From an uncultured Gammaproteobacteria bacterium (GTDB lineage Bacteria; Patescibacteriota; Microgenomatia; Levybacterales; UBA12049), in the NCBI GenBank assembly GCA_964579845.1, contig CAZOHC010000006.1, positions 1 through 44,688 on the forward strand: a DNA stretch of 44,688 bases, given 5' to 3'. Within the stretch, counting starts at the first letter, position 1. Each line of letters starts with the position of its first letter. This document shows, one piece after another, positions 363 to 41,874 of this stretch. The translations under genes were made by a program, and so were the position numbers. Under the pieces are notes generated by a model. The model ran no database searches and had not been told where the DNA came from. It saw only the letters and a list, made by a program, of their open reading frames with translations.

Positions 363-3300
363 ATGAAAACTCTGTCCCAATTTCAGCATTATTTAATTTC
401 ACAATCATCAGCAAGTCCTGCTACCGTGAAAAACTACTCCGCTGATATCAGACGATTCATCAGATGGTACGAAGATCGTTTTAAGGAAACCTTTGATCCG
501 GTGAAAATATCTGCGCAGATGATCACAGAGTTTCGAAATGATCAAACTGCATCAACTCCGAACAAAGAAACCTCACCGTCCGCCACTCGCTCAGTTGAGC
601 GATACCTGTCATCACTGAGAAAGTATTTTTCCTACCTCGTCACAGTAGATGTGCTGCAGACGAACCCGTTTGACGAACTGAAAGCACTTGCGGCTACGAA
701 AGAAAAAGCAGACCCATGGGAAATTACAGCATTCAAGAACATGCTCTATGAAGCTAAAGCATCAGATCTAACAATAAAAAACTATATCATAGATATTCAA
801 CAATTTATCACGTGGATGACAGCAGCAATCGGCACAGGTGATCAATTTGAGATTCATGAGCATAATATCCCTTCATACATCACCCCAAGTGTTCTTGAGG
901 AATATAAAAGCCGACTGCTTCATGAAGCCAAAGCATCACCCAAAACCGTTAACCGCAAACTCTCCTCACTCAGAAAATATATCCTCTGGGCACAGAAGAG
1001 AAATATGATTCCGGAGTTTGCCCCTGAACAGCTGCCGAAGAATACCGGGGAGAGAGTGGCAACAGGTGTAGTCGTAGCAGAATCTGAAGACACATATCAG
1101 TCAGAAGCACCTATTGCTATCACTGAGCCTGAGGCAGTTATTGAGACAGGTCAGGACGAACCTGAGGAAATCTCTGCCTCAATAAAAGAAGAGTTCATGA
1201 AACCAAGCAGTTACTCGAGAATCCCGCCTGTGCGATTACTCCAAAAAGTGCGGAAAGGCGGGATGTTCTTGTTTGATATAGTTGTCGTGCTACCGCTTGT
1301 TACCGGGATGGAAGTTATCAATTATCGAATCTGGCTGCTAAAAGGCAGCCCTGTCTTCGTCCCACAGGCACGTCCATCACTTAGCAAAAGAGCCAAGCAA
1401 CTGATACTCAAGCACAATCTGCTTCCCCGCCGAGTTACTCCGTCAAAGCCGAAAGTTATCGCGAGTATCCCGAAGTCATTCTATGCGCCGATGGCGATCT
1501 CGCTCAGACACGCGCCACTTCATAAAAAAGCACTGTTTCACCTGAAGCACACCAGACCGAAATGGTACCGATCGTACCATTCCTACGGTATCGTCCACTA
1601 TGCACACGCTGCGATACTGGTCATCATTATGTCAGCAGCTGGCTTCGGCGTCGTACAGGCAATGTCTGACTCTGGGCAGACGCCTGTTGCGGTTGCATCA
1701 CTTCCTGCCGGTCCGCCGAGACTGGTCGCATTCAAAGGAAGGCTTATTACATCAGAGACATCACCGATCACCGCAAATACCAATTTGCGGTTCGGCATTT
1801 ATAAGGATGCAAAAGCTTCAGGCTCAGCACTCCTCTGGGAAGAGGTACGTGAGGTGACACCTGATGAAACAGGCGCGTTCAGTCTGATGCTTGGTGAAGT
1901 ACGTGAGATTCCGCAGCGGCTGTTTACTGATAACCCCAGACTCTACATCGGCATGACCGTCGGTACCGAACAGGAGCTCACACCGCGCAAGCAAATCCCG
2001 ACAGCAGTACTCGCCTCAACCGCAGACACGCTACAGGGGCTACGCCCGATTACAGACCCGCAGGCAGGTGAGAAAAATGCCGTCTTAGCACTCGATTCTT
2101 CGGGAAATATGGTCATCGGCGGAAACGCAAATCCTGTTTTCATAGCGACAGGCGGTAGTTTCACGCTGGCAGGACAGACCCTCATTCTGACAACCGCACC
2201 AGGGACTGATAGTGACATCGTTATCGCACCTGACGGATTCGGAAAAGTTGATATACAGAGACCGATTCACAATACATCAGAACAGATCAGCCCGTCAGGG
2301 ATAACAGGAGCTGTCGAGATAGCTGATAACCTCGTTATCACAGCCAGTCAAAGTGCACAATCAGCCCTTTATATCAACCAAAACTCCAACGGTCCACTCA
2401 TTAGCGCAAGTAGTAGTGGAATTGCTAAATTTACGCTTGAACATACCGGTGCAGCCTCGTTCGGTGATAGTCTCATGATTCATGGGGATACCTTGAGCAC
2501 GACACAGACCAGTTTCAGCCTCCTCACGACCAATCCGATTAACCTCAACTTCGGCACGTCAGCAACTTCCCTCTCAATCGGTGGAACAGAAGGAACAACC
2601 ACGATTAATAATTCCCGAACGATTATTTCGGGAAATCTGGACGTAAACGGAACAACCGGCCTCACCTTCGGGAATTCATCGGCCGGGATTACCTTTAGCG
2701 GTGGCGGGACTCACCTGATAAAAGCCTCCTCCGGCGACCTCAAACTGGGTGAAGTCACCCTCACCGGAACGACGAAGCTGGCAAAAGACCAGAGCATTCT
2801 GCCGGAGAGTGCTGATGGAATCAATAACCTGGGGTCACAGAGCAATCCTTTTGACACACTCTATGTTGAGAACATTGCTTCCCCTGCACTGCTCTGGCAG
2901 ACAAGCGGAACAGCGATCACGCCGAAACACGCAGAGAGCATCGCCTTGGGTACGAACACGGCAGCACCTGTCTGGCAAGTATTCGCCTCAGGTGCCAAGG
3001 CAGGAACAGCCTCGAGTTCCGGAAGCCTCAGTTTTACCGGCAGTAACACAACTATTGATACATTACATGGCGGGAGTCTCACCTTCCGCATGTCACCCGG
3101 AGGAGATGACGGCTTGTCCCCGATCATGACGCTATCTGCAGACAGAGTTGATATCGTCGGAACTGTCACCGCAACAGATCTTATAGAAACTTCGTCACGT
3201 CGATATAAGAAAGATATCGTGCCGGTCCATGACCCGCTTGGCACTATCGGCAAACTGCAGGGCGTGTACTATACCTGGGATGAAGATCACGGCGGGAGAC

Positions 3301-5000
3301 GGGCACTCGGATTTATTGCAGAAGAGGTCGGGGCGGTTATTCCTGAAGTAGTTCATTGGGAGGAAGACGGTGTTCATGCTCGCGGTATCAGCTACGGGGA
3401 TCTTACTGCACTTGCCATTGAGGGAATAAAAGCCCAACAGAAACAGATCTCAGTCCTCTCAGGCATGGTCCATGCTATTACCCTCACTGAGGACACACAG
3501 CTCCATGTTATGGTAAACGGGACTGATGTCACCGTTCAGGACGAGACAGGAACACCGGTAACCGCGAAAGGAGGATTCGCTGAAGCAGTCATCGGGAAAA
3601 TAACAGCTGGCATGCAGCAGGTGCATCATCTGACGACAGGAACAATGCAGGCAGGACAAAGCATTCTGGGCATTGCCAGTGCAGACAGCCTCACAACAGA
3701 GTATCTTGCAGTCGGCGACATGCAGGTCGCCGGGACACTCGGTGCGACTCAGGCAACCATTCTCTCACTCCGGACAGAATCATTGCAAGCAACAGAAGGT
3801 GACAGTCTTACGCTATCGCTCGGTTCATCTGCAATCCGCATCCTTACAGGCAGCCAAGGAGTACAAATTGCTGTGACAGAGTTTGATAGCTACGGCAACG
3901 CCTCATTCACCGGAGCAATACGAGCAGAGCAGGTCGTCGCGGCGACTTCAGTCACCGCCAAAAAAATTATCGCTGATGAGCTGAACCTTAGTGACGAGGG
4001 ATTACGTTCACTCGCACAACACATCGCAGGTTATCTTCCGCAAAGCAGTCAAAATACTTCAGAAAATATCCATCTATCACTTACTACTACAGATCTCCCG
4101 GGGGAAAATGAAGCGGATTCTGCCTCAGAATCCGGTGTTTTGACCGGTGAGACAGATGATTCTGCATCATCATCTGCAGGATTAACCGACCATCCGATTG
4201 TTTCTGACTATTCGCCACTCCCCCCGTCTCTGCCTAATTATAATAGTATAGGAGAAACACTTATCGGCTCATCAATGCCGACCGGTGCCGGCTATGTCGT
4301 CTCTGATTTGTCTGTTGCGGATACGCTCATCGTCAGCGGCAACTTCATCATGAACAATAACTCGATCAATGTAATCGGTGCTGACCTGGAGATTCAGCCG
4401 CTCCAAGCAGGAGGAGTCTCGTTCATGGCAGGACTTGTCACCATCTCCCCTGATGGGAATTTGACCGTAAACGGTAACGCGTTCTTCGCAGGCGATATGA
4501 CCGTAAACGGACAACTCCAAGCAGGCATCATCTCCCCTGTCGGAGAACAGGATCTGATCGTCAAACTCGGGACAGAACAAGCATCTGGAGATCAGTCACT
4601 TGTTATTCAGAACGCGACAGGAGCGTCACAACTGCGTATCAATGACACCGGTGATATCGAATCAGAAGGAACAGGAAGCTTTACATCACTCCTCTCAAAG
4701 TCACTGAATATCGCACGAGGTGCACAGGCGGATGATTCACCGGTGAGAACCATCGCCTCGTCTTCAGCTGGGACCGCGGTAATTCTCCCCGGCCAAACCT
4801 ATCGAACGATTGTGACACCGTTCGTCAACGCTGAGTCGCTCGTCTACATGACACCGACCTCAGACACCCAAGGTGTTGTACCGTATATCGCCAGACAAAC
4901 AGCAGAAGACCCGATGCGAGGCAGAAAAGGCTCCTTTACGATCGAGATCAGTAACCCGGTCACCAAGCCGATCAAGGTTAATTGGTGGGTTGTGAATTAG
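363..5000 (+). CDS. Giant membrane-anchored fibre protein: two integrase-type N-terminal SAM-like (core-binding) modules, TM helices, long fibre repeats and an internal Peptidase_S74-like intramolecular chaperone domain
   Basis: 1545-codon ORF with AAAGGAA upstream of ATG 363. Residues 1-215 hold two tandem XerC/D core-binding-like segments (SPATVKNYSADIRRFIRWY..RYLSSLRKYFSYL; DLTIKNYIIDIQQFITWM..RKLSSLRKYILWA) and no catalytic domain. Hydrophobic helices lie near aa 300-325 and 410-433. SSRRYKKDI..GISYGDLTALAIEGIKAQ (nt 3192-3462) fits the tail-spike S74 chaperone motif. Confidence 0.85.
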   Translation: MKTLSQFQHYLISQSSASPATVKNYSADIRRFIRWYEDRFKETFDPVKISAQMITEFRNDQTASTPNKETSPSATRSVERYLSSLRKYFSYLVTVDVLQTNPFDELKALAATKEKADPWEITAFKNMLYEAKASDLTIKNYIIDIQQFITWMTAAIGTGDQFEIHEHNIPSYITPSVLEEYKSRLLHEAKASPKTVNRKLSSLRKYILWAQKRNMIPEFAPEQLPKNTGERVATGVVVAESEDTYQSEAPIAITEPEAVIETGQDEPEEISASIKEEFMKPSSYSRIPPVRLLQKVRKGGMFLFDIVVVLPLVTGMEVINYRIWLLKGSPVFVPQARPSLSKRAKQLILKHNLLPRRVTPSKPKVIASIPKSFYAPMAISLRHAPLHKKALFHLKHTRPKWYRSYHSYGIVHYAHAAILVIIMSAAGFGVVQAMSDSGQTPVAVASLPAGPPRLVAFKGRLITSETSPITANTNLRFGIYKDAKASGSALLWEEVREVTPDETGAFSLMLGEVREIPQRLFTDNPRLYIGMTVGTEQELTPRKQIPTAVLASTADTLQGLRPITDPQAGEKNAVLALDSSGNMVIGGNANPVFIATGGSFTLAGQTLILTTAPGTDSDIVIAPDGFGKVDIQRPIHNTSEQISPSGITGAVEIADNLVITASQSAQSALYINQNSNGPLISASSSGIAKFTLEHTGAASFGDSLMIHGDTLSTTQTSFSLLTTNPINLNFGTSATSLSIGGTEGTTTINNSRTIISGNLDVNGTTGLTFGNSSAGITFSGGGTHLIKASSGDLKLGEVTLTGTTKLAKDQSILPESADGINNLGSQSNPFDTLYVENIASPALLWQTSGTAITPKHAESIALGTNTAAPVWQVFASGAKAGTASSSGSLSFTGSNTTIDTLHGGSLTFRMSPGGDDGLSPIMTLSADRVDIVGTVTATDLIETSSRRYKKDIVPVHDPLGTIGKLQGVYYTWDEDHGGRRALGFIAEEVGAVIPEVVHWEEDGVHARGISYGDLTALAIEGIKAQQKQISVLSGMVHAITLTEDTQLHVMVNGTDVTVQDETGTPVTAKGGFAEAVIGKITAGMQQVHHLTTGTMQAGQSILGIASADSLTTEYLAVGDMQVAGTLGATQATILSLRTESLQATEGDSLTLSLGSSAIRILTGSQGVQIAVTEFDSYGNASFTGAIRAEQVVAATSVTAKKIIADELNLSDEGLRSLAQHIAGYLPQSSQNTSENIHLSLTTTDLPGENEADSASESGVLTGETDDSASSSAGLTDHPIVSDYSPLPPSLPNYNSIGETLIGSSMPTGAGYVVSDLSVADTLIVSGNFIMNNNSINVIGADLEIQPLQAGGVSFMAGLVTISPDGNLTVNGNAFFAGDMTVNGQLQAGIISPVGEQDLIVKLGTEQASGDQSLVIQNATGASQLRINDTGDIESEGTGSFTSLLSKSLNIARGAQADDSPVRTIASSSAGTAVILPGQTYRTIVTPFVNAESLVYMTPTSDTQGVVPYIARQTAEDPMRGRKGSFTIEISNPVTKPIKVNWWVVN

Positions 5001-32689: not shown

Positions 32690-35551
32690 TTATCCCTCGA
32701 AAATATTCCCCTCTTCAAGCGTCTTTTTCGGTTCTCCTGGGTGATTAGTATCTTTTTTCTGCGCTTTCTCTTGCATCATGCTGTTGGGGTGCTGTCTCTT
32801 ATGAAACGGTTTTCCCGCATGTCCTGATGCATGGTGCGGTTTCTGCGCATGAGGCTGCTGTCCGTTGTCTCGTTCTGATGCATTCCGATGCTCAGATCCG
32901 GTGGAACTTCGAGGTTGTGCATGTTGCTTGGTATCATCGGAACCGGAATTTTTCTGCTCGTTATTTCTATCAGACTTCGCAAAGAATTTTTCCTGTGACA
33001 GGTCAACTGATGCCCTATCCCGTTTTTCTTCAGGTTGTGTCTGTGGCTTCTGTGCCGGCTGGGCGTGTTTCGGAGGCTGGTTTTCTTTTCGTTCGACCTG
33101 TTCAGGTGAATGTTGCTTCGGTTTCTCAAACGAGGACTGCTCACGCCGTTCCGGTGACGAAGGTCTATTCTCGTGCTTACGTTCCCCACCTTGTTGCTTA
33201 GACTGATTAGCTTGTCCTCCAGGCGGCTTTTGCCCGCCTGCTTGCGGTTTCTGCGTAGGAGGTTCGCTGTATACACCGGGAATCGAGATCAGGACATCTT
33301 CTTTCACAGGCTTCATATATCGCTCACGACTCATCTTCATCACTTTTTCCCGATTCTGGGTCACGGATCGAGGTAGTGGCAGCGTAAAGCACATAAACGG
33401 ACTGGAGGTCATCCCGTCAATCATCATCTTCAGAATAGCCTGGTAATTCCCGAGTGCGAGCACATCTTCTTCTTTGAAGCGTTCGACGAATTCTTTCGCC
33501 AGATACGGACTATCCCCTGCACCGACGAGGAAGGTCATAATCGTCCCGCAGTTCCCGAAGATCGCAAGCCTGACGTCTTCGTCGATCTGTCCCATATACT
33601 GGTTCGCCAGAATCAGATTAAGGCGGTATTTTCGAGCTTCAGAGAGAATTTTGATAAACGATGACGTCGCGAAATTCTGGAACTCATCCACATACAGGTA
33701 AAAATCCCGTCGCTCAGACTCCTCCTGAAACGCACGACTCATCGCAGCCAATTGCAGTTTTGTAATAATCATCGCACCCAGAAGTGCTGCGTTATCCTCA
33801 CCCAGTTTTCCCTGCGACAGGTTCAGCAGGAGAATTTTCCCCTCATCCATGACTTTGAGGAGGTCGAGTGATGACTTCGGATTTTTGATGATGTTCCGGA
33901 TGACGGTACTGGAGACGAACTGACCGACTTTGTTCTGAATCGGTGAGACTGCCTCTGTTCTCATCTTGTCTGAATACATGTTAAATTCATTTAACCAGAA
34001 ACTTTTCAGCACCGGATTAGTGAGGCGATCGAAGACTTTGGCACGGAATTTCGCATTCGCAAGCATCTCAGGCACCATAAGCAGCGTCGCATCAGGCATT
34101 TCGATGACTGATGCGAGTGTATTTCTCAGAATGTATTCAAGTCGTGGTCCCCAGGACGTTCCGTACAGTTTATTAAAAATCGCGACAATGCCTGAAACCA
34201 CGAGTTCTTTCTGCTCCGGATTATTCACTTCAAGCGGATTCAGAGAGAATGCATTCTGCGTGTCTGAGGGGTCAAGCGAGATAATGTCATTCACCCGGTA
34301 CGACGGAACATAATCCAACACCGTCTCACACAGATCACCATGCGGGTCGATAATACAGAAGCCCTCACGATTTCGCATATCATTAATCGCCATATTCGCG
34401 ATAAAAGTCGACTTCCCGGTACCTGTTTTTCCGATGACATAGAAATGGCGTCTCCTGTCGACTTTTTTAATCCCGAAGACCATCTGACGGTTTTTAAACT
34501 CCGTTCTCCCGAAGAAATTTACGTCTGCTTTCTGCTCATCAGTCATGAATTCAGCAACAGGCAAATTCTCCGGTGCATCCGTCAGAATCACCTTATGCCA
34601 GGCGATATTCGGAATCGTCGAGAGCTGCATGCCGGGGAAATGGAACAAAGTCGCCAGCTCCCGGACATTCAGAATCTGATGCGTCGGGGTAAAATACTGT
34701 GAACGATCCTGCATATGCTTGAGAAGCCGCTGTTTCTGCCAGAGAACAGGCTTACTCAGATGCAGACTGCTACCTGCAGGATTGTTAAATGACGAGAATG
34801 AATGCGCGATCTCGGTCATAAAATGATACGATCGCTGTTTCGTCGGACCGTTGGTCGCGATTCTGATGGCTGTTCTGAACCCGGCATAGGCGACTTTCTC
34901 GAGAATTTCTTTAGCTTTCGGATTCGGGTGTGCAGTACCGGCACTATCGACTGTTTTTTTATTCGCCTCATGTTCACCTGAACGCTGCCAGGAATCACCT
35001 ATAGGGTATAACAGGTACTGAATCACCGCGACATCTCCGGGCTGAGACTTCGAAAGAATACCGAGGATAGACGAGATCGGATCGACATCCTTAAACGTAT
35101 CGAAGGTTTTAATCGGCAGTAAACCGCCGGTGAGCTTCAGCTGGGTATAGGAGAGCGTATCTTTTTTCGCGAGCATCTCAGGCAGATAGTCTTTGACCCG
35201 TGAGATGAGTGCTTTCGGATACTGCGCGACGAGCTGACTCTCGATAAACGCCTGGTAGTCAGGCGGTACTACGAGGAAAAATCTGATCTGCTGATCGACA
35301 ACCCCGATCTCCAGGCTGATCGGAATCCCCCGCTTCAGAAAGACATAGTGCCTGAATCTGAGCTCGGTCAAACTGCTTAAAAACTGCACTGTCGATTCAG
35401 GTGTTTGTTCTCCGGTGCGTGACGTGCGTATTTCGAGGACAACATGTTTCGGTGACTCATACGCATCCTTAGTGGCTACCATATAGCTTACATAATAGTG
35501 TATCTGAGGCTTCGACGCAACGTGGACAATGCCAATGTGAGCCTGAAACAA
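32690..35551 (-). CDS. VirD4/TraD-like type IV coupling-protein-family ATPase with a long disordered Q/P/K/H-rich tail
   Basis: 953 aa with Walker A GKTGTGKST and Walker B-like FYLYVDEFQNF. The ARKYRLNLILANQY motif is present. The last ~230 aa are low complexity. ATG 35482 is an alternative start. Confidence 0.85.
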   Translation of the reverse strand: MFQAHIGIVHVASKPQIHYYVSYMVATKDAYESPKHVVLEIRTSRTGEQTPESTVQFLSSLTELRFRHYVFLKRGIPISLEIGVVDQQIRFFLVVPPDYQAFIESQLVAQYPKALISRVKDYLPEMLAKKDTLSYTQLKLTGGLLPIKTFDTFKDVDPISSILGILSKSQPGDVAVIQYLLYPIGDSWQRSGEHEANKKTVDSAGTAHPNPKAKEILEKVAYAGFRTAIRIATNGPTKQRSYHFMTEIAHSFSSFNNPAGSSLHLSKPVLWQKQRLLKHMQDRSQYFTPTHQILNVRELATLFHFPGMQLSTIPNIAWHKVILTDAPENLPVAEFMTDEQKADVNFFGRTEFKNRQMVFGIKKVDRRRHFYVIGKTGTGKSTFIANMAINDMRNREGFCIIDPHGDLCETVLDYVPSYRVNDIISLDPSDTQNAFSLNPLEVNNPEQKELVVSGIVAIFNKLYGTSWGPRLEYILRNTLASVIEMPDATLLMVPEMLANAKFRAKVFDRLTNPVLKSFWLNEFNMYSDKMRTEAVSPIQNKVGQFVSSTVIRNIIKNPKSSLDLLKVMDEGKILLLNLSQGKLGEDNAALLGAMIITKLQLAAMSRAFQEESERRDFYLYVDEFQNFATSSFIKILSEARKYRLNLILANQYMGQIDEDVRLAIFGNCGTIMTFLVGAGDSPYLAKEFVERFKEEDVLALGNYQAILKMMIDGMTSSPFMCFTLPLPRSVTQNREKVMKMSRERYMKPVKEDVLISIPGVYSEPPTQKPQAGGQKPPGGQANQSKQQGGERKHENRPSSPERREQSSFEKPKQHSPEQVERKENQPPKHAQPAQKPQTQPEEKRDRASVDLSQEKFFAKSDRNNEQKNSGSDDTKQHAQPRSSTGSEHRNASERDNGQQPHAQKPHHASGHAGKPFHKRQHPNSMMQEKAQKKDTNHPGEPKKTLEEGNIFEG

Positions 35552-35667
35552 GTCCTTGCCGGAGAGTAGATAGTAGAAAATAGAAGGTAGATCATCTACC
35601 CTCCTACTTCAACCCTCCACCCTGAATTCCCAATTCGATAATTAAACAATTAGTAATTAACCACCTA

Positions 35668-35696
35668 TTGACGTACTATAGGACATGTGCTATAAT
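35668..35696 (+). promoter_or_regulatory. P1: near-consensus sigma70 promoter
   Basis: TTGACG, a 17-nt spacer (tactataggacatgtgc), then TATAAT. Confidence 0.6.
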
Positions 35697-35780
35697 CCCC
35701 TTCATCTCATCAATATTGATGAGTTTTTGCCCGCCTGCATCGCATATGCGAAGCATTTCGGGCAGGTTCTCGACATTTTC

Positions 35781-35878
35781 GTCATCCTGAACGAAGTGTG
35801 ATTTATCCATTGAACATATCAATGAAATCACCCTGATTAGGGAAGGATCTCAAGATTCTTCGCTACACTCAGAATGAC
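35781..35878. repeat. R2: composite nested palindrome in reverse orientation relative to R9
   Basis: gtcatcctgaac..gtgtgatttatccattgaacatatcaatgaaatcaccctgattagggaaggatctcaagattcttcgctacactcagaatgac. Its reverse complement matches R9 almost base for base over ~70 nt. Confidence 0.8.
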
Positions 35879-35943
35879 AGTTTAGAACAGCACATTGAAA
35901 GTTACAGAGGAAAATTGTACTGAAATCTGATGATTCATACCAT

Positions 35944-35995
35944 CGGCTTTGGTTTCGGTCCTGCAACAAGCCTTGCAGGCCAGAATCCGGAGCCG
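35944..35995 (+). ncRNA. Conserved hairpin motif, copy 1 (UUCGGUCC..ACAAGCC..GGCCAGAA)
   Basis: Outer stem CGGCUUUGG/CCGGAGCCG and inner stem CCUGCA/UGCAGG. Both stems differ from copy 2 yet stay complementary. Confidence 0.5.
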
Positions 35996-36592
35996 AACGT
36001 GGTGGATCGTCAGGCCTTCCTGTTCATAGAACATGGGACGCTTCCGACCAGTTTGGCTTCGGCATAATCTCTTATCCAACTTAATTCAATTTGGAAGGAG
36101 GGGAAAATGCCGCGTGCACCGCCTAAAAAACGGTGAAACTTGGGTATATGAAGAATATACCCACTTAATATAGATCGCGGAGCCTTGGCTGACGGTGCCC
36201 CGGGCATAGCCTGCGGGATTCGGCCGATTGGCTCAAAATCTCACACTCATGCGAGTGTGAAAATTGTGTTTAACTGAAGTGAGGAGGGCGGATTGCGAAC
36301 GCTGATACCTCCGTAAGGAGGGAACGTTTTGCGCCTGGATGGGCGCTAATTTAGCCTCCCCCGTCACGTTTCCGGGGTTCCCCATATCGGGGAACCCCAG
36401 TTCTTACACCAGTACAACATACAGCATTGAAGCTGACAGCTTCGTTCCCCTATCGCTTGCGATAGATCGAACGATCCCAGGCTCTCAATGCCCAAGCTGG
36501 CTCGATTTATCGGCCACTCCTCTGTAACTTACTATCAACCCCCAAATCCCCCACTTTTGAAATTCCAAAACATTACCTATTTCTAAACTCGT

Positions 36593-36706
36593 GTCATGCT
36601 GATCAGAGTGTGATTTATCCATTGAACTTATCAATGAAATCACCCTGATTAGAGAAGAATCTTTTTTATAAGATCCTTCTCTCGATTTCATCGGGATCAG
36701 GATGAC
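36593..36706. repeat. R3: composite nested palindrome
   Basis: gtcatgctgatcagagtgtgatttatccattgaacttatcaatgaaatcaccctgattagagaagaatc..gatccttctc..gatcaggatgac. Confidence 0.75.
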
Positions 36707-36734
36707 AAAAAATATAATCCCAACTAGAATACCC

Positions 36735-36763
36735 TTGACATTTATTATAGGCTTTGCTATACT
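36735..36763 (+). promoter_or_regulatory. P2: near-consensus sigma70 promoter
   Basis: TTGACA, a 17-nt spacer (tttattataggctttgc), then TATACT. Confidence 0.6.
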
Positions 36764-36769
36764 TCTCCT

Positions 36770-37242
36770 CTTCTCGTCATTCTTGAGGAGATGCACGTTA
36801 AAAAGGGAGAGAGAAATTTGTAATAGATTGACCGGGACTATCCGTGTCAGGCATTAGCTTCGGTCCCACAACGAGCTTTGTGGGCCAGAAGCTGATGCTT
36901 GCCGGAAGGTTCCGCTAAGAGGATCTCACCTACTTGGTATATTGTTCGACAATATATGAGTATTTGAGCCCTTTCGGCAACGCATCAGCACTATATTAAG
37001 ACCGAATAATTTTCGGAAGATCGCTTGAACCAAGCGGTGACGGTGTTGCGAAAGGTGACACAATCATCGCTCCGAAAGGAGATAGTGATGTAGCAGTCAG
37101 TTGCTCCGGGAACGCCCGAAAAGACGCACACGCCCGAAAAAGCACCCGTTTTTACGGGTGCGCCACCCGAGTCACGACAGTGATATTCACTGCACGGCAA
37201 GGGATCAGGCAACATCGGGGAGGCACCAGTCGGCGCCTCCCC
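36770..37242 (+). ncRNA. Candidate structured noncoding transcript U2 (P2 to the hairpin at 37217-37242)
   Basis: No credible ORF. It contains motif copy 2, CTCC-gaaa-GGAG (37070-37081) and GCACCCGT-tttt-ACGGGTGC (37142-37161). It ends in the GC-rich hairpin GGGGAGGC..GCCTCCCC. Confidence 0.45.
36849..36900 (+). ncRNA. Conserved hairpin motif, copy 2
   Basis: Outer stem AGGCAUUAGC/GCUGAUGCUU and inner stem CCCACA/UGUGGG. It shares the UUCGGUCC, ACGAGCU and GGCCAGAA elements with copy 1. Confidence 0.5.
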
Positions 37243-37250
37243 ACTTTCTA
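37217..37250 (+). terminator. Terminator-like GC hairpin with a weak U tract
   Basis: GGGGAGGC-accagtcggc-GCCTCCCC followed by actttcta. Confidence 0.4.
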
Positions 37251-37443
37251 TTACAAATAATACGGCACGCAGACTAATGACATCATTCCATCATCGAAAT
37301 TGCGGTGATTCGAACGATACTGAGGCTAATTGTGCCCAATACAAATCGCGTTTACGCGACTCATCTCACTCCCTTTTTTCATTCGCTCCAAAATCCCCTG
37401 ATACTTGATACTTTCCCCTTTATACCTTTAAGGCTGAGTAGCC

Positions 37444-37472
37444 TTGACGAATTCCCTTACCGAGCGTATAAT
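37444..37472 (+). promoter_or_regulatory. P3: consensus sigma70 promoter
   Basis: TTGACG, a 17-nt spacer (aattcccttaccgagcg), then TATAAT. Confidence 0.6.
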
Positions 37473-37478
37473 CCCGAT

Positions 37479-38306
37479 ACGACATTTACTTGTACGATAT
37501 TTGATTCGTATCTCATGTAAAATGCTCGCCTATTTTGTATTCTGATGTACTGCACAATGCGGTATGCAGAAGATCTTTGACAAGGTACAGAGGAACATTG
37601 AGAGATACCGGAGGGTATTTTCCTTCCCTGCATAAAACACCAGCCAAGACGTTCGGTATACGTGAAAATGCAAAGGTCAAAATGCAAAAGTATGGTCATC
37701 CTGAATTGATTTTCAGGATCAACTTAAACTTTTTATCTGAATTTTTGCCTTTTACCTTTTAAAATTTGAATTCACCGTATCACCGTAGGTGTTGGCCGGT
37801 GTTTTGTGATGGGGATCGATACGAGCCTCCAACTCACTCCCGAAATCAGTAGAAGTCCCCGTACTCTACGGTTAGAGGAATTCGTGACTCGTCACGAAAC
37901 ATCGGCGCCACTCTCCTAGGTGGAGAGTTCGTGCCCGGAGGGCAATATGACAGGTTCGCTCACTGTCGATAGGAGGTCAATCTTTATGAACGATCCACCC
38001 TCGACTGAAGCGCCGTCTGAAGCGATCGCCTAAGAGCTTTTAGTTTGCTCTGCTCAGGCCGATCGTTTCACCGGAGGGTGTAGCATTACACCCTCCACTT
38101 ACTTTGAATTCTAACCGCGAAGCCCGGTGTGCTGTGACCCCCACTTGCAGGCACACCCGCTTTGCATTCCGGAAGGAAACATCATCCATCCATCCCGATG
38201 GTGTTTTCTTCCATCCCGAGTTTGAAGTGGTGGCCTACCTTCTCTCCCCCACCACTTCAGCTCATGCAGGAAGACCTGTTCAACAGGTCTTCCTGCCCTT
38301 TTTCAT
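37479..38306 (+). ncRNA. Candidate ~830-nt noncoding (or micro-ORF leader) transcript U3, from P3 to a strong terminator
   Basis: It is bounded by P3 and the 14-bp terminator at 38266. Only a 15-codon ORF has an RBS. Helices include GGAGGGTGT-agcatt-ACACCCTCC and GAAGTGGTGG..CCACCACTTC. Confidence 0.5.
37695..37723. repeat. R10: minimal outer-arm-only version of the palindrome family
   Basis: GTCATCCTGAA-ttgatt-TTCAGGATCAAC. Confidence 0.5.
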
Positions 38307-38310
38307 TTTC
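38266..38310 (+). terminator. Strong rho-independent terminator
   Basis: GCAGGAAGACCTGT-tca-ACAGGTCTTCCTGC followed by CCTTTTTCATTTTC. Confidence 0.8.
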
Positions 38311-38494
38311 TCTCACGATACTGCACGACGAGTGCCTCAATCACCTTCACCATTTTGCGGTGAATCGTGCCTGACGCATGTACGCCTGCCATTCGGCAGA
38401 CACGTTTTGTGTTGTATTCCGGCTCGTTTTTTAACGGCCACTCTGTACCTTGTTTTTTCTATCCCCCCTTCAAGCCTGACTTCTCCCCCTCATT

Positions 38495-38586
38495 GTCATT
38501 CTGAGGTGTCTACCGAAGAATCCCTTCTGTATGAGACCCCTGTCTGCCGGCAGGCAAGGCTTCATCCTTTCAGTCTTCAGGATGAC
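38495..38586. repeat. R4: degenerate palindrome copy with an internal insertion
   Basis: gtcattctgaggtgtctaccgaagaatccc...cagtcttcaggatgac. Confidence 0.6.
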
Positions 38587-38845
38587 AGATTAGTTGTGGG
38601 TCTACTTCTGTGAAAATTCTTGTTTTAACGCACAAAATCCGTGAAAAATATTGAGTAAACGCACGAAGAGCTTTCAGGTATGGTACGACGACAATCGGTA
38701 TCGAAGCGCGTATGGTGAGGAGTCATACATAGCTCGTTAAATGCCGTTCATCGTTACCTCTTATCGATACGAGCTTCCTAACCGTAAGACACATCTACTA
38801 AGATCCTCATCTTCTAGTAACGATATCTCTTCCTAATGATGAGTC

Positions 38846-38874
38846 TTGACAAGACCTATAGGATATGCTAGTAT
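38846..38874 (+). promoter_or_regulatory. P4: sigma70-like promoter of the same family, upstream of the ribozyme and small-gene operon
   Basis: TTGACA, a 17-nt spacer (agacctataggatatgc), then TAGTAT. It shares the internal CTATAGG element with P1. Confidence 0.45.
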
Positions 38875-39070
38875 AACTCAACAATTCTGCCCGGATGGAT
38901 AAACACCTCAGGGCTGAAGAAGTACTTTAACAATTCAGCTCGAAACACTCACCGCATCCTTTCTGATGCATACATTCCCTATTTATGACCGGAGACAAGA
39001 GTCTAACTCAGAGCTATTTTGCGTTCTGAGCAACCGGACTCTTATCTTCTGTCGTAAGTAAGAAGTACAT

Positions 39071-39130
39071 GTCATTCTGAACAACCGTGAAGAATCCCTA
39101 TATGAGATCCTTCGCTCCGCTCAGGATGAC
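39071..39130. repeat. R5: compact palindrome copy
   Basis: GTCATTCTGA-acaaccgt-GAAGAATC-cctatatga-GATCCTTC-gctccgc-TCAGGATGAC. Confidence 0.8.
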
Positions 39131-39479
39131 AAATTTCTTTGACCGAGTCATCACGTCAAACGCGACAGGGACTCGATCTGTTTAATCTGGGATTCTGCTC
39201 TGCAGAAGTTCTTTAATAAGGCGAATACGTATAAAAGGAGTTCAAAGGGCAAAAGGCAAAAGTCAAAACGCCTAATACAGCCTTAGGGCTGCTTGTGGTG
39301 CAAAATGATGGATGCGTGAGAATATTGAGCTTCGTAACAGAGATATCTCATAATCGACAGCGGTTAAGGGGGTATGGTTTCATTCAAATGGATTTGAAAC
39401 GATACTCTTTATCCGCTGTTGATATACAAAAGTAACTTTTCATTTTTTACTCCCTTCCCTATCATACTTATATCGCCTT

Positions 39480-39538
39480 ACTGTCTACGCCTCATCGGCG
39501 TACTGATGAGTCCCGCTTTTAAGCAAGGACGAAACAGT
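39480..39538 (+). ncRNA. Hammerhead ribozyme A (type III, compact); predicted cleavage after C39485
   Basis: ACUGU-C|UACGCC-ucauc-GGCGUA-CUGAUGA-GUCC..GGAC-GAA-ACAGU. All invariant core positions are present and stems I, II and III pair. Confidence 0.85.
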
Positions 39539-39597
39539 GTTCTTTAACAAGGCATCGAGATCATCTAAACGGCTCAGAGCCGTGTGGTGATCGAAGA

Positions 39598-39631
39598 GTT
39601 AGAAAAATTCAGAATTTTTCTAACCGTTTTA
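39598..39631 (+). terminator. AT-rich 12-bp hairpin plus a short U tract (attenuator or terminator-like)
   Basis: GTTAGAAAAATT-cag-AATTTTTCTAAC followed by cgtttta. Confidence 0.4.
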
Positions 39632-39766
39632 ACAGATTAGCCCTTTATGAGCAGATGGTCCCTAAGGGGGGTTGGTTCGGATCCACTTCAGGCATCCGTA
39701 CGAACCTCTTTAAGGGCCATTTGCCCTTCCCCGCAGCAATGTCGCTCGGTAAAGGAAAGGGTAAAA

Positions 39767-39922
39767 ATGATCTGGAAAATCTTTCGTCATTTTCTTTCCG
39801 CCATCATTCGGTGGTGGGAGAAGAAGACCGCGCTGCCAAGCTGGGAGCGTGAGAACGCTCCATTCTACAGCGGATATGATCCGCTAGATCGGTACAGGAG
39901 GAAGGAAAATGGGAACTGTTAA
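39767..39922 (+). CDS. Small hypothetical protein (51 aa)
   Basis: ATG preceded by AAAGGAAAGGG. The product is MIWKIFRHFLSAIIRWWEKK... It overlaps the next ORF by 14 nt. Confidence 0.35.
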   Translation: MIWKIFRHFLSAIIRWWEKKTALPSWERENAPFYSGYDPLDRYRRKENGNC

Positions 39923-40247
39923 AAAATTTCCACTCGACAGAGTCCGTCCGCCGGACTTTTACGCGGAAGATTACCCGCGGGGTCCAGCACGGATAAAACC
40001 TATCCCAGGCTCTCTCCCCGAGTTCTCTCCGGGAGACAGGTTCCTCCTCGAGCGTGATGATGAGAGTAATGACCTTTTTGAAGGTCAGACGCTCACCGTC
40101 CTACAGGAGTTTCTTAACCTCGTCGTGTACGAGGTCGAGGAGTTTCCTGGTGTAAAGCTCTACCTCGAGAGGTGGGAGTTTGATATGCTCCGCCTCAATC
40201 AGGTGATGATCTACCTACCTCCGGCAATCGAGCCGGGGGTGAAGTAG
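39909..40247 (+). CDS. Hypothetical protein (112 aa)
   Basis: AGGAGG lies 7 nt upstream of the ATG. No family was recognised. Confidence 0.6.
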   Translation: MGTVKKFPLDRVRPPDFYAEDYPRGPARIKPIPGSLPEFSPGDRFLLERDDESNDLFEGQTLTVLQEFLNLVVYEVEEFPGVKLYLERWEFDMLRLNQVMIYLPPAIEPGVK

Positions 40248-40808: not shown

Positions 40809-40972
40809 TCAGAGATGAATTCAACTGAATTCTCCTTTGGAGAAGTTCTTTAAAAGAGAGAAATGATAACGAGGCATCGGCAGCAAGTTCCGCCACCACG
40901 GAATTTCCTGCCGATGCTTGGTAAGTCGGTCACCTTCTCCGGTGACTCGGAGAAAAAGGGAGGAACAAAACC

Positions 40973-41514: not shown

Positions 41515-41655
41515 TTCTGTTTACGCCTCATCGGCGTACTGATGAGTCCATACTCAAACTCTGTCATTCTGAAGCCAACGGCTGAAGAATCTCTCTACAA
41601 GAGGTCCTTCCCTACGCTCCAGGATGACTAGTGAGGAGCTGAGGACGAAACAGAA
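41515..41655 (+). ncRNA. Hammerhead ribozyme C (type III, long stem II); predicted cleavage after U41521
   Basis: UUCUGU-U|UACGCC-ucauc-GGCGUA-CUGAUGA-GUCC..[R7]..GGAC-GAA-ACAGAA. Confidence 0.8.
41563..41628. repeat. R7: palindrome copy forming the distal stem II of hammerhead C
   Basis: gtcattctgaagccaacggctgaagaatctctctacaagaggtccttccctacgctccaggatgac. Confidence 0.75.
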
Positions 41656-41874
41656 GTTCTTTGACAAGGCATAGTCGAGGTCGCCTTTGGCGACCGAAGT
41701 AACTTTTCAGGAAGTACTTACTATACATTCTAAAAAGTTCCAATTTTTATAAACACCTTCTTTCCTTTTCCCGAGGACGATACAGGTGCCGGTGATTGGG
41801 TATCGTGGAAAAATCTTCGTCCACGATGCCTGTTCTCCGGCACACTGGTCCGGGAAATCAAAAGGAGGAAAATC

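Follow-up and report, generated by a model that had tools for sequence, protein, structure and literature searches.

What function could be served by two related hairpins in a stretch of bacterial DNA without credible protein-coding genes, and why should a small genome keep such a stretch? The question is raised by contig CAZOHC010000006.1 (positions 1 to 44,688, forward strand; 44,688 nucleotides (nt)) of the assembly GCA_964579845.1, from an uncultured bacterium deposited as Gammaproteobacteria and placed by its GTDB lineage within Patescibacteriota (Microgenomatia; Levybacterales; UBA12049); this whole stretch is referred to as the window. Positions 35552–39650 of the window (4.1 kb) contain no credible open reading frame (ORF) under translation tables 11 and 25, with table 25 opening no convincing frame there, and the region holds four + strand promoters, starting at 35668, 36735, 37444 and 38846, which match 10–11 of the 12 consensus positions. 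About 4 kb of promoter-driven, ORF-free and highly structured DNA is costly in Patescibacteria genomes of ~1 Mb and is probably functional. The region belongs to a mobile island of this ultra-small bacterium. Three successive units, U1, U2 and U3, make up much of it, U1 and U2 being extremely dense in hairpins, and the two hairpins of 52 nt, one in U1 and one in U2, are the best-conserved handle on the U1 and U2 RNAs. With modest confidence, we consider it probable that these hairpins are the homologous first arm of paralogous, end-closed transcripts, marking the 5′ boundary of a stable RNA via processing or protection.

A preliminary description of this DNA had located the two copies at 35944–35995 and 36849–36900, and both the sequences and the coordinates proved correct. 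Folded alone, copy 1 forms a single hairpin of −30.4 kcal/mol (z −6.0) and copy 2 a single hairpin of −32.3 kcal/mol (z −7.1), with none of 200 dinucleotide shuffles as good in either case. The − strand folds of the copies reach −25.8 and −26.9 kcal/mol, so that the + strand is better by 4.6 and 5.4 kcal/mol, respectively, because several pairs are G.U. In a gap-free two-row alignment with 22 pairs, 43 of the 44 cells are paired, and although the copies differ at 16 of 52 bases, not a single pair is broken. Both bases are exchanged in five pairs (1-52, 5-48, 8-45, 19-34 and 20-33) and one base in two pairs, while the U.U mismatch of copy 1 becomes a C-G pair in copy 2; all 14 stem differences keep or create pairing. 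The compensatory stem changes proposed earlier are thereby borne out, and when the 3′ partner was slid by 1–3 columns as a control, only 22–48% of cells were paired and no double change was left. These compensatory changes are expected if selection keeps the arm paired. The stems have drifted under compensation; the arm is under selection for pairing and acts on the + strand, with a strong promoter ahead of each copy.

The internal loop is better conserved than the stems. In the 16 bases of its UUCGGUCC/GGCCAGAA region the copies show no difference, compared with 16 of 36 bases elsewhere (Fisher p 0.0009), which agrees with the earlier claim that the junction strands are conserved. The bulges U16 and A39 and the U.G pair 7-46 are also common to both copies. 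The outer stem was rightly described as complementary in both copies, but to call it completely different in sequence went too far, since 10 of its 20 bases differ. The 40-nt flanks of the copies show ungapped identities of 5/40 and 10/40, i.e., chance level, which makes the hairpin an island of similarity; besides it, U1 and U2 resemble each other in a single weak block near their 3′ ends.

Both hairpins stand at a defined place in their units. Inverted-repeat and folding analysis placed the 5′ strand of a closing helix (P1) shortly ahead of each hairpin and its partner 550–870 nt downstream, so that each hairpin forms the apex of the first arm within P1. The minimum-energy folds of U1, U2 and U3 all retain P1, whose 3′ strand is followed in each unit by a pyrimidine-rich tail and then by the next promoter. 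The folds of U1 and U2 have z values of −11.1 and −11.8, within a range of −11 to −18 for the three units. U1 and U2 carry all elements of the end-closed layout, i.e., a promoter or hammerhead, P1, a hairpin within ~50 nt, and a tail or the next hammerhead. The promoter-to-hairpin distances had been called similar in the preliminary description, which does not hold for the DNA as it stands (241 nt in U1 against 79 nt in U2); the distance is longer in U1 because two repeat elements, ~155 nt in total and both occurring elsewhere, are inserted there, and with these subtracted the distances are ~86 and 79 nt. A tblastx comparison of U1–U3 with 20 related loci gave no match, and the ORFs behind a Shine-Dalgarno sequence encode only non-hydrophobic peptides of 2–28 amino acids (aa).

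The strand preference extends beyond the two copies. The + strand is the more stable one in each of the 12 arm hairpins examined, where 38 G.U pairs stand against three A.C 1 × 1 mismatches; this count is biased, since these hairpins were chosen by + strand stability or with a + strand model. For the interiors of 10 whole units, the ratio of G.U to A.C is 147:21 on the + strand and 109:43 on the − strand (Fisher p 0.0005).

The layout recurs in the island and in its relatives in other genomes of the family. A systematic scan found 10 units with promoter, closing helix and tail in five genomes; a perfect long-range helix of at least 13 base pairs (bp) is present in six of the 10, compared with 3.5% of 1000 shuffles, and all 10 have a fold z of −11 or lower (6–8 shuffles each). 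Downstream of hammerheads and of some promoters stands a conserved box, TTCTTTAACAAGG, which runs into the 5′ strand of the closing helix. Of 21 boxes, 13 have a partner of at least 11 bp at 150–1600 nt downstream, against none of 21 in a reversed-sequence control, and for eight of these closed boxes a hairpin with an energy of −24 kcal/mol or lower lies within 60 nt. Real genes are present in some units of other genomes, so the layout wraps coding as well as non-coding cargo; for example, promoter, closing helix and arm of unit G108_a (L029 467–1484) enclose a 210-aa ORF for a secreted, SLH-like-looking protein. Written as GUUCUUUAACAAGGC, the box stands in the window at 39208–39222, 39539–39553, 40845–40857 and 41655–41670, and elsewhere at L026 271–290, 1417–1430 and 3918–3932 and several times on the − strand of L027. 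A 300-nt sliding scan of folding energy over all loci was dropped, being confounded by GC content. The literature on hammerheads in Patescibacteria and on structured noncoding RNA in the Candidate Phyla Radiation held no such RNAs among the matches listed, which is not proof of absence; our results suggest that this transcript design of box, end-closing helix and leader arm has not been described before.

Related arms could be traced at syntenic loci of other genomes. A covariance model built from the two copies recovered, in the window and the 1.13-Mb genome, only these copies and their reverse strands, and filtered searches of 60 relatives and of 38 genomes with the accessory coupling protein (see below) gave no match; these blanks are weak because the filter also missed a hairpin in genome G134 that was found by the unfiltered search. 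The exact core pattern occurred at three loci in species-representative genomes, at eight in metagenome contigs and at none in viral sequences, in no case with the stems. For the syntenic loci, 6 kb of DNA upstream of the gene for the accessory coupling protein was taken from 20 genomes, and the model was run unfiltered over 16 of these 20 (92 kb), where it found + strand hairpins in G134 (E 0.003) and G074 (E 0.0045). The gene order at both loci is as here, namely coupling protein, promoter-driven structured units, a leader like that of U4, and a hammerhead operon. The G134 hairpin lies 16 nt inside a 15-bp closing helix and ~85 nt from a promoter, and the G074 match lies behind a hammerhead, within a gene's leader. 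Two further hairpins with the related junction AGCUUCKACCCC...GGGGYGKAA were found by eye, and in the resulting six hairpins of the UUC...GAA type, from three genomes, 58 of the 60 outer-stem cells are paired, with 3–5 pair types at each of levels 2–10. Covariation is also seen in the homologous arms that occupy this position in syntenic units of two other genomes. The preliminary description had set the search for further copies as its test in advance, and the outcome is split: none with both core and stems turned up in the genome, in the filtered search of relatives or in the collections, whereas diverged syntenic homologues covary.

RNA-library contigs point to a boundary at the hairpins. 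Contigs of RNA run X6 are identical to the window at 35994–36362 (U1) and 36902–37118 (U2), and contigs of RNA run X20 cover 37810–38080. Both X6 contigs start 1–2 nt from the 3′ foot of the 52-nt hairpin, and DNA contigs of run X3 run across both hairpins. Sequencing-adapter letters directly adjoin the X6 contig at 35994, and this points to a preferred fragment end at this position. The leaders, the hairpins and the 3′ thirds of U1 and U2 have no RNA-contig cover, which is not readable as absence. An RNase III substrate is expected to offer at least ~20 bp of double-stranded RNA in a cell that has the enzyme; the hairpins offer 22 pairs each, and more with the lower helix, and a gene with an RNase III domain lies at G000:C8:11041–11430 (129 bits against a cut-off of 35). 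The contig boundary of U1 and U2 is at the foot of the helix and not within it.

Given this order of elements, a working scheme can be proposed for the units. A short conserved 5′ box leads into the 5′ strand of P1, followed within ~50 nt by an irregular hairpin of 20–25 bp, then by the cargo (non-coding here, small genes elsewhere) and the 3′ strand of P1; the unit ends in a hammerhead or in a pyrimidine-rich tail together with the next promoter. The arm would fold once transcribed, stack beside P1, and set the 5′ boundary of the accumulating RNA, by offering a processing site specific for double strands or by blocking 5′-to-3′ decay, and the invariant loop bases may be a recognised surface. 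In this sub-lineage, selection would also keep the asymmetric internal loop (UUC-GG-U-CC / GG-CC-A-GAA) and the AGC-containing hexaloop. A wider proposal can be put forward only tentatively: in such a packaging scheme, every RNA of the island, whether it starts at its own promoter or is freed by a hammerhead cut, could be closed by a private helix beside its box and leader arm, with U1–U3 as dedicated, abundant and hairpin-dense non-coding RNAs that might act as decoys or scaffolds for a factor recognising double-stranded RNA, from the host or from the partner of the episymbiont, and with the internal loop as the recognition site. If the hairpins mark a processing or recognition step, they offer an experimental approach to the shaping of transcripts by a mobile element in an uncultured lineage; if the arms are only generic stabilisers, what is seen is ordinary compensatory evolution in paralogous leaders.

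Several points weigh against hairpins that mark the 5′ boundary of dedicated end-closed RNAs. In the two-copy comparison, 12 of 500 shuffles match the observed pairing values, and this control on covariation is weak because the alignment consists of two rows only. The choice of the 12 arms mentioned above favours the + strand beforehand; in the whole-unit folds, total G.U is equal on the two strands (216 vs 217) and the − strand folds are only 0–11% weaker, so that most helices, being plain Watson-Crick, would fit a DNA palindrome almost as well. The boundary evidence consists of assembled contigs from a single library, with no silent stretch as a DNA control, and if reverse transcription stopped at a stable hairpin, the boundary would look the same as one made by processing. 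No sequence similarity is detectable between the bodies of units from different genomes, and the family is one of layout and not of alignment; five of the 13 closed boxes have no strong arm; and U1–U3, instead of being dedicated non-coding RNAs, may be degenerate cassettes. The relatives in G134 and G074 score weakly (E 0.003 and 0.0045 in 92 kb). The alignment of the six hairpins was anchored by hand on UUC/GAA, because a MAFFT alignment was inconsistent with the structure, and two of its members were added by eye; six related hairpins were found in total, and two copies have this exact core.

Membership in known families was also considered. With the covariance models of Rfam 15, the only match in the window above its gathering score is a tRNA; at E values up to 10, the hairpins match only models of miRNA precursors and small RNAs (13–26 bits against thresholds of 59–500), and U1–U3 match neither GOLLD/ROOL nor any other model. 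The hammerhead core CUGANGA...GAAA is in neither hairpin, and the only Hammerhead_3 match in 33000–40000 is a type III hammerhead at 39478–39540 (41.9 bits against a gathering score of 48.5). The earlier suggestion of a selected RNA element is upheld with regard to selection for pairing on the + strand, but a ligand sensor or a self-cleaving RNA finds no support, as no Rfam family, whether ribozyme, riboswitch or other, is matched. The hairpins are followed by AACGUGG and GCCGGAA, with no U tract, and neither is listed in a scan for intrinsic terminators. They also lack the termini of the palindromic repeat family GTCATYCTGA...TCAGRATGAC of this lineage, a family with numerous copies in and between genomes, and they have only two copies in the genome. 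Where 78 of 150 genomes of the family match the 4.1-kb region, the matches fall on repeat elements and other short stretches, none on the hairpins. Integron attC sites have outer core sites RYYYAAC / GTTRRRY around an imperfect palindrome with extrahelical bases; these core sites are absent here, where the hairpin ends read CGGCUU.../...GAGCCG and AGGCAU.../...AUGCUU, and the conserved part of the hairpins is the inner one and not the outer. The 57-nt hairpin-forming repeat at 35724–35780 (GCCCGCCTGCATCGCATATGCGAAGCATTTCGGGCAGG...) is found at 85–95% identity in many genera of the family and is distinct from the GTCATYCTGA...TCAGRATGAC elements.

Other explanations read the same observations differently. 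An island- or host-encoded RNA-binding protein that reads the internal loop and the hexaloop, e.g., a polymerase read-through factor of the nut/put kind, would fit the invariant junction on drifting stems, the retention of the bulges U16 and A39 in both copies, the distance of ~80 nt from a strong promoter with the inserted repeats discounted, and the related junction GCUUYCR..GAARGY in hairpins of two other genomes. However, no candidate protein is seen, as the scanned island ORFs carry no Pfam domain; the junction is not kept in the arm hairpins of G108 and G061 or in the third arm of G134; and neither hairpin is followed by an intrinsic terminator to override, so that a sequence-specific site of this type is unlikely. 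We judge it more doubtful still that the hexaloop (AGCCU in U1, AGCUU in U2) makes a tertiary contact, within or between molecules, with the AGGCU of the shared 3′ block, by which the 5′ arm would be locked to the 3′ domain or molecules linked to one another. The positions 35969–35973 are complementary to 36479–36483 and 36874–36878 to 37323–37327, the loop change from C to U is compatible (C-G becomes U.G), and loop and 3′ block are the sole similarity between U1 and U2, but five base pairs arise by chance about once per 1 kb, AGGCU is paired locally in the minimum-energy fold of U1, and inspection of G134 and G074 by eye revealed no comparable complementarity.

Two further readings would need no RNA function, and both appear quite improbable. 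A palindrome acting at the DNA level, as single-stranded DNA or a cruciform in transfer or replication of the island, or arising by template switching in quasi-palindromes, would suit the accessory type IV coupling-protein gene directly upstream, the nearly equal stability and total G.U of the − strand folds of whole units, and the mostly perfect Watson-Crick helices. Template-switch correction would nevertheless erase the shared bulges and the U.G pair 7-46; moreover, the + strand is favoured in 12 of 12 arms and in the interior G.U to A.C ratio, canonical double-strand promoters point into the units, and contigs of RNA libraries cover them. The chances are similarly slim for a neutral relic, i.e., a patch recently duplicated or gene-converted between the two leaders and perhaps a small mobile palindrome, with pairing due to chance or to weak generic selection for RNA stability. 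Its appeal lies in the mere two copies in this genome, the failure to find any copy in public collections, and the mosaic nature of copy 2, whose outer stem resembles the hairpin at 40872–40919 (w3) and whose core resembles copy 1, the outer-stem pattern shared with w3 being found at only these two places in the genome. Against it stand the 14 stem differences, each of which keeps or creates a pair, and the outer stem, where half of the bases changed while the junction did not; the homologous arms in other genomes covary too, and the hairpin has neither the termini nor the copy number of the real repeat family of the window. A homologous first arm that marks the 5′ boundary of U1 and U2 stays the reading we prefer, and the coordinates of the features are collected in the table.

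Table. Positions of the hairpins, units, promoters and helices discussed in the text (coordinates of the window)
Feature	Position	Strand	Remarks
Hairpin copy 1	35944–35995	+	22 pairs, bulged U16 and A39, one U.U mismatch, hexaloop CAAGCC
Hairpin copy 2	36849–36900	+	Architecture as copy 1, hexaloop CGAGCU
Third hairpin, w3	40872–40919	+	Outer stem as copy 2 (AGGCAUYRGC...GCYGAUGCUU), apex different
Unit U1	about 35703–36570	+	Own promoter, non-coding transcript predicted
Unit U2	about 36770–37440	+	Own promoter, non-coding transcript predicted
Unit U3	37579–38454	+	Own promoter at 37444–37472; a long arm of ~190 nt replaces the 52-nt hairpin
U1 promoter	35668–35696	+	TTGACG, 17 nt, TATAAT; 11/12 consensus positions
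U2 promoter	36735–36763	+	TTGACA, 17 nt, TATACT; 11/12 consensus positions
U1 leader repeats	35724–35780; 35781–35878	+	The latter is the GTCATCCTGA...TCAGAATGAC element
Extended arm A of U1	35927–36013	+	Lower helix 35927–38/36002–13 beneath the 52-nt core
Extended arm A of U2	36833–36914	+	Hairpin copy 2 is the apex
U1 closing helix P1, 5′ strand	35899–35911	+	Partner 36518–36530
U1 closing helix P1, 3′ strand	36518–36530	+	Followed by C-rich tail
U2 closing helix P1, 5′ strand	36800–36814	+	Partner 37364–37378
U2 closing helix P1, 3′ strand	37364–37378	+	Followed by pyrimidine-rich tail
U3 closing helix P1	37579–92/38441–54	+	14 bp
Block shared by U1 and U2	36457–36483, partner 37300–37327	+	Ends AGGCU, complementary to hairpin loop AGCYU; a lead only

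Smaller features of the units deserve mention. Strong Shine-Dalgarno sequences with tiny ORFs stand in U1 at 36097–36139 (MPRAPPKKR) and in U3 at 37970–38035 (15 aa); mini-ORFs likewise occur in the units of G134 and G074, and their sequences are not conserved. A TATAGG inside the 17-nt spacer is common to island promoters, being present in the window at 35668–35696, 36735–36763 and 38846–38874 and elsewhere at L026 1227, 1334 and 3040 and at about 5955 on the − strand of L027, and such a shared motif would suggest a common regulator. Part of the long arm of U3 (37646–37791) appears to be a strain-variable segment, because it is replaced by 91 other letters in DNA run X4.

Upstream of U1, on the other strand, lies a gene for a TraD/VirD4-like coupling ATPase (32690–35551, − strand), which is an accessory paralogue. 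This accessory form (~47–65% identity) is present in about 30–40 of the 150 family genomes sampled, while a core copy at 37–39% identity is present in nearly all of the 150; the core copy of the present genome is at G000:C1:70843–72942 and is 37% identical to the accessory one. The viral collection contained no relative of the coupling protein, and the C-terminus of the accessory protein is a low-complexity tail of ~200 residues rich in Q, P and K. At 363–5000 on the + strand, a 1545-aa ORF joins N-terminal phage-integrase SAM-like domains with an endosialidase chaperone (Peptidase_S74), an odd combination.

Comparison with known systems places the units near several of them without identity to any. 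Like GOLLD and ROOL, they are highly structured RNAs of 0.4–0.9 kb on mobile elements whose function is not established, but the unit bodies here are not conserved between genomes and consist mostly of perfect hairpins. The hok mRNA of plasmid R1 folds back so that its 5′ and 3′ ends are paired, and the units resemble it in the long-range helix that joins the ends of a mobile-element transcript of 0.4–1 kb; U1–U3 differ in having no toxin-like ORF, and no antisense RNA was identified. The nutL/nutR sites of phage lambda and the putL/putR sites of HK022 are paired RNA stem-loops downstream of strong early promoters that modify RNA polymerase for read-through, put consisting of two stem-loops and boxB being a 15-nt hairpin, with nut requiring its cognate N-type protein. 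The two hairpins share with them the arrangement of two related stem-loops, each behind a strong mobile-element promoter, and the conserved loop or bulge bases on variable stems, whereas no terminators or cognate factor were found here and the arm lies within an end-to-end-closed design. The RNase III processing hairpins in early transcripts of phages, of the T7 R1.1 type, are irregular, about two helical turns long, interrupted by an internal loop and repeated at unit boundaries, where stems drift and the shape is kept. Irregular two-turn hairpins at the unit boundaries of mobile-element transcripts and the presence of an RNase III gene are common ground; in contrast, the boundary here is at the helix foot, there is no sequence relationship, and cleavage is only presumed.

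The hammerhead cassettes are neighbours in the literal sense. Clustered hammerheads that flank single genes in prophage-like regions have been reported, long transcripts were proposed to be processed into single-gene RNAs, and a possible cleavage-ligation was mentioned (Perreault et al. 2011, PMC3088659). The passages of that paper covered here contain no description of closing helices between 5′ and 3′ ends, of a conserved box or of leader arms. U1 and U2 differ from these cassettes in having their own promoters and no hammerhead; the same island nevertheless carries such an operon, and hairpin w3 lies 5 nt inside the P1 helix (40857–67/41504–14) of one of its hammerhead-flanked mRNAs. The design links promoter-driven RNAs to the long-unexplained hammerhead-flanked cassettes and could explain the fate of the RNA after cleavage.

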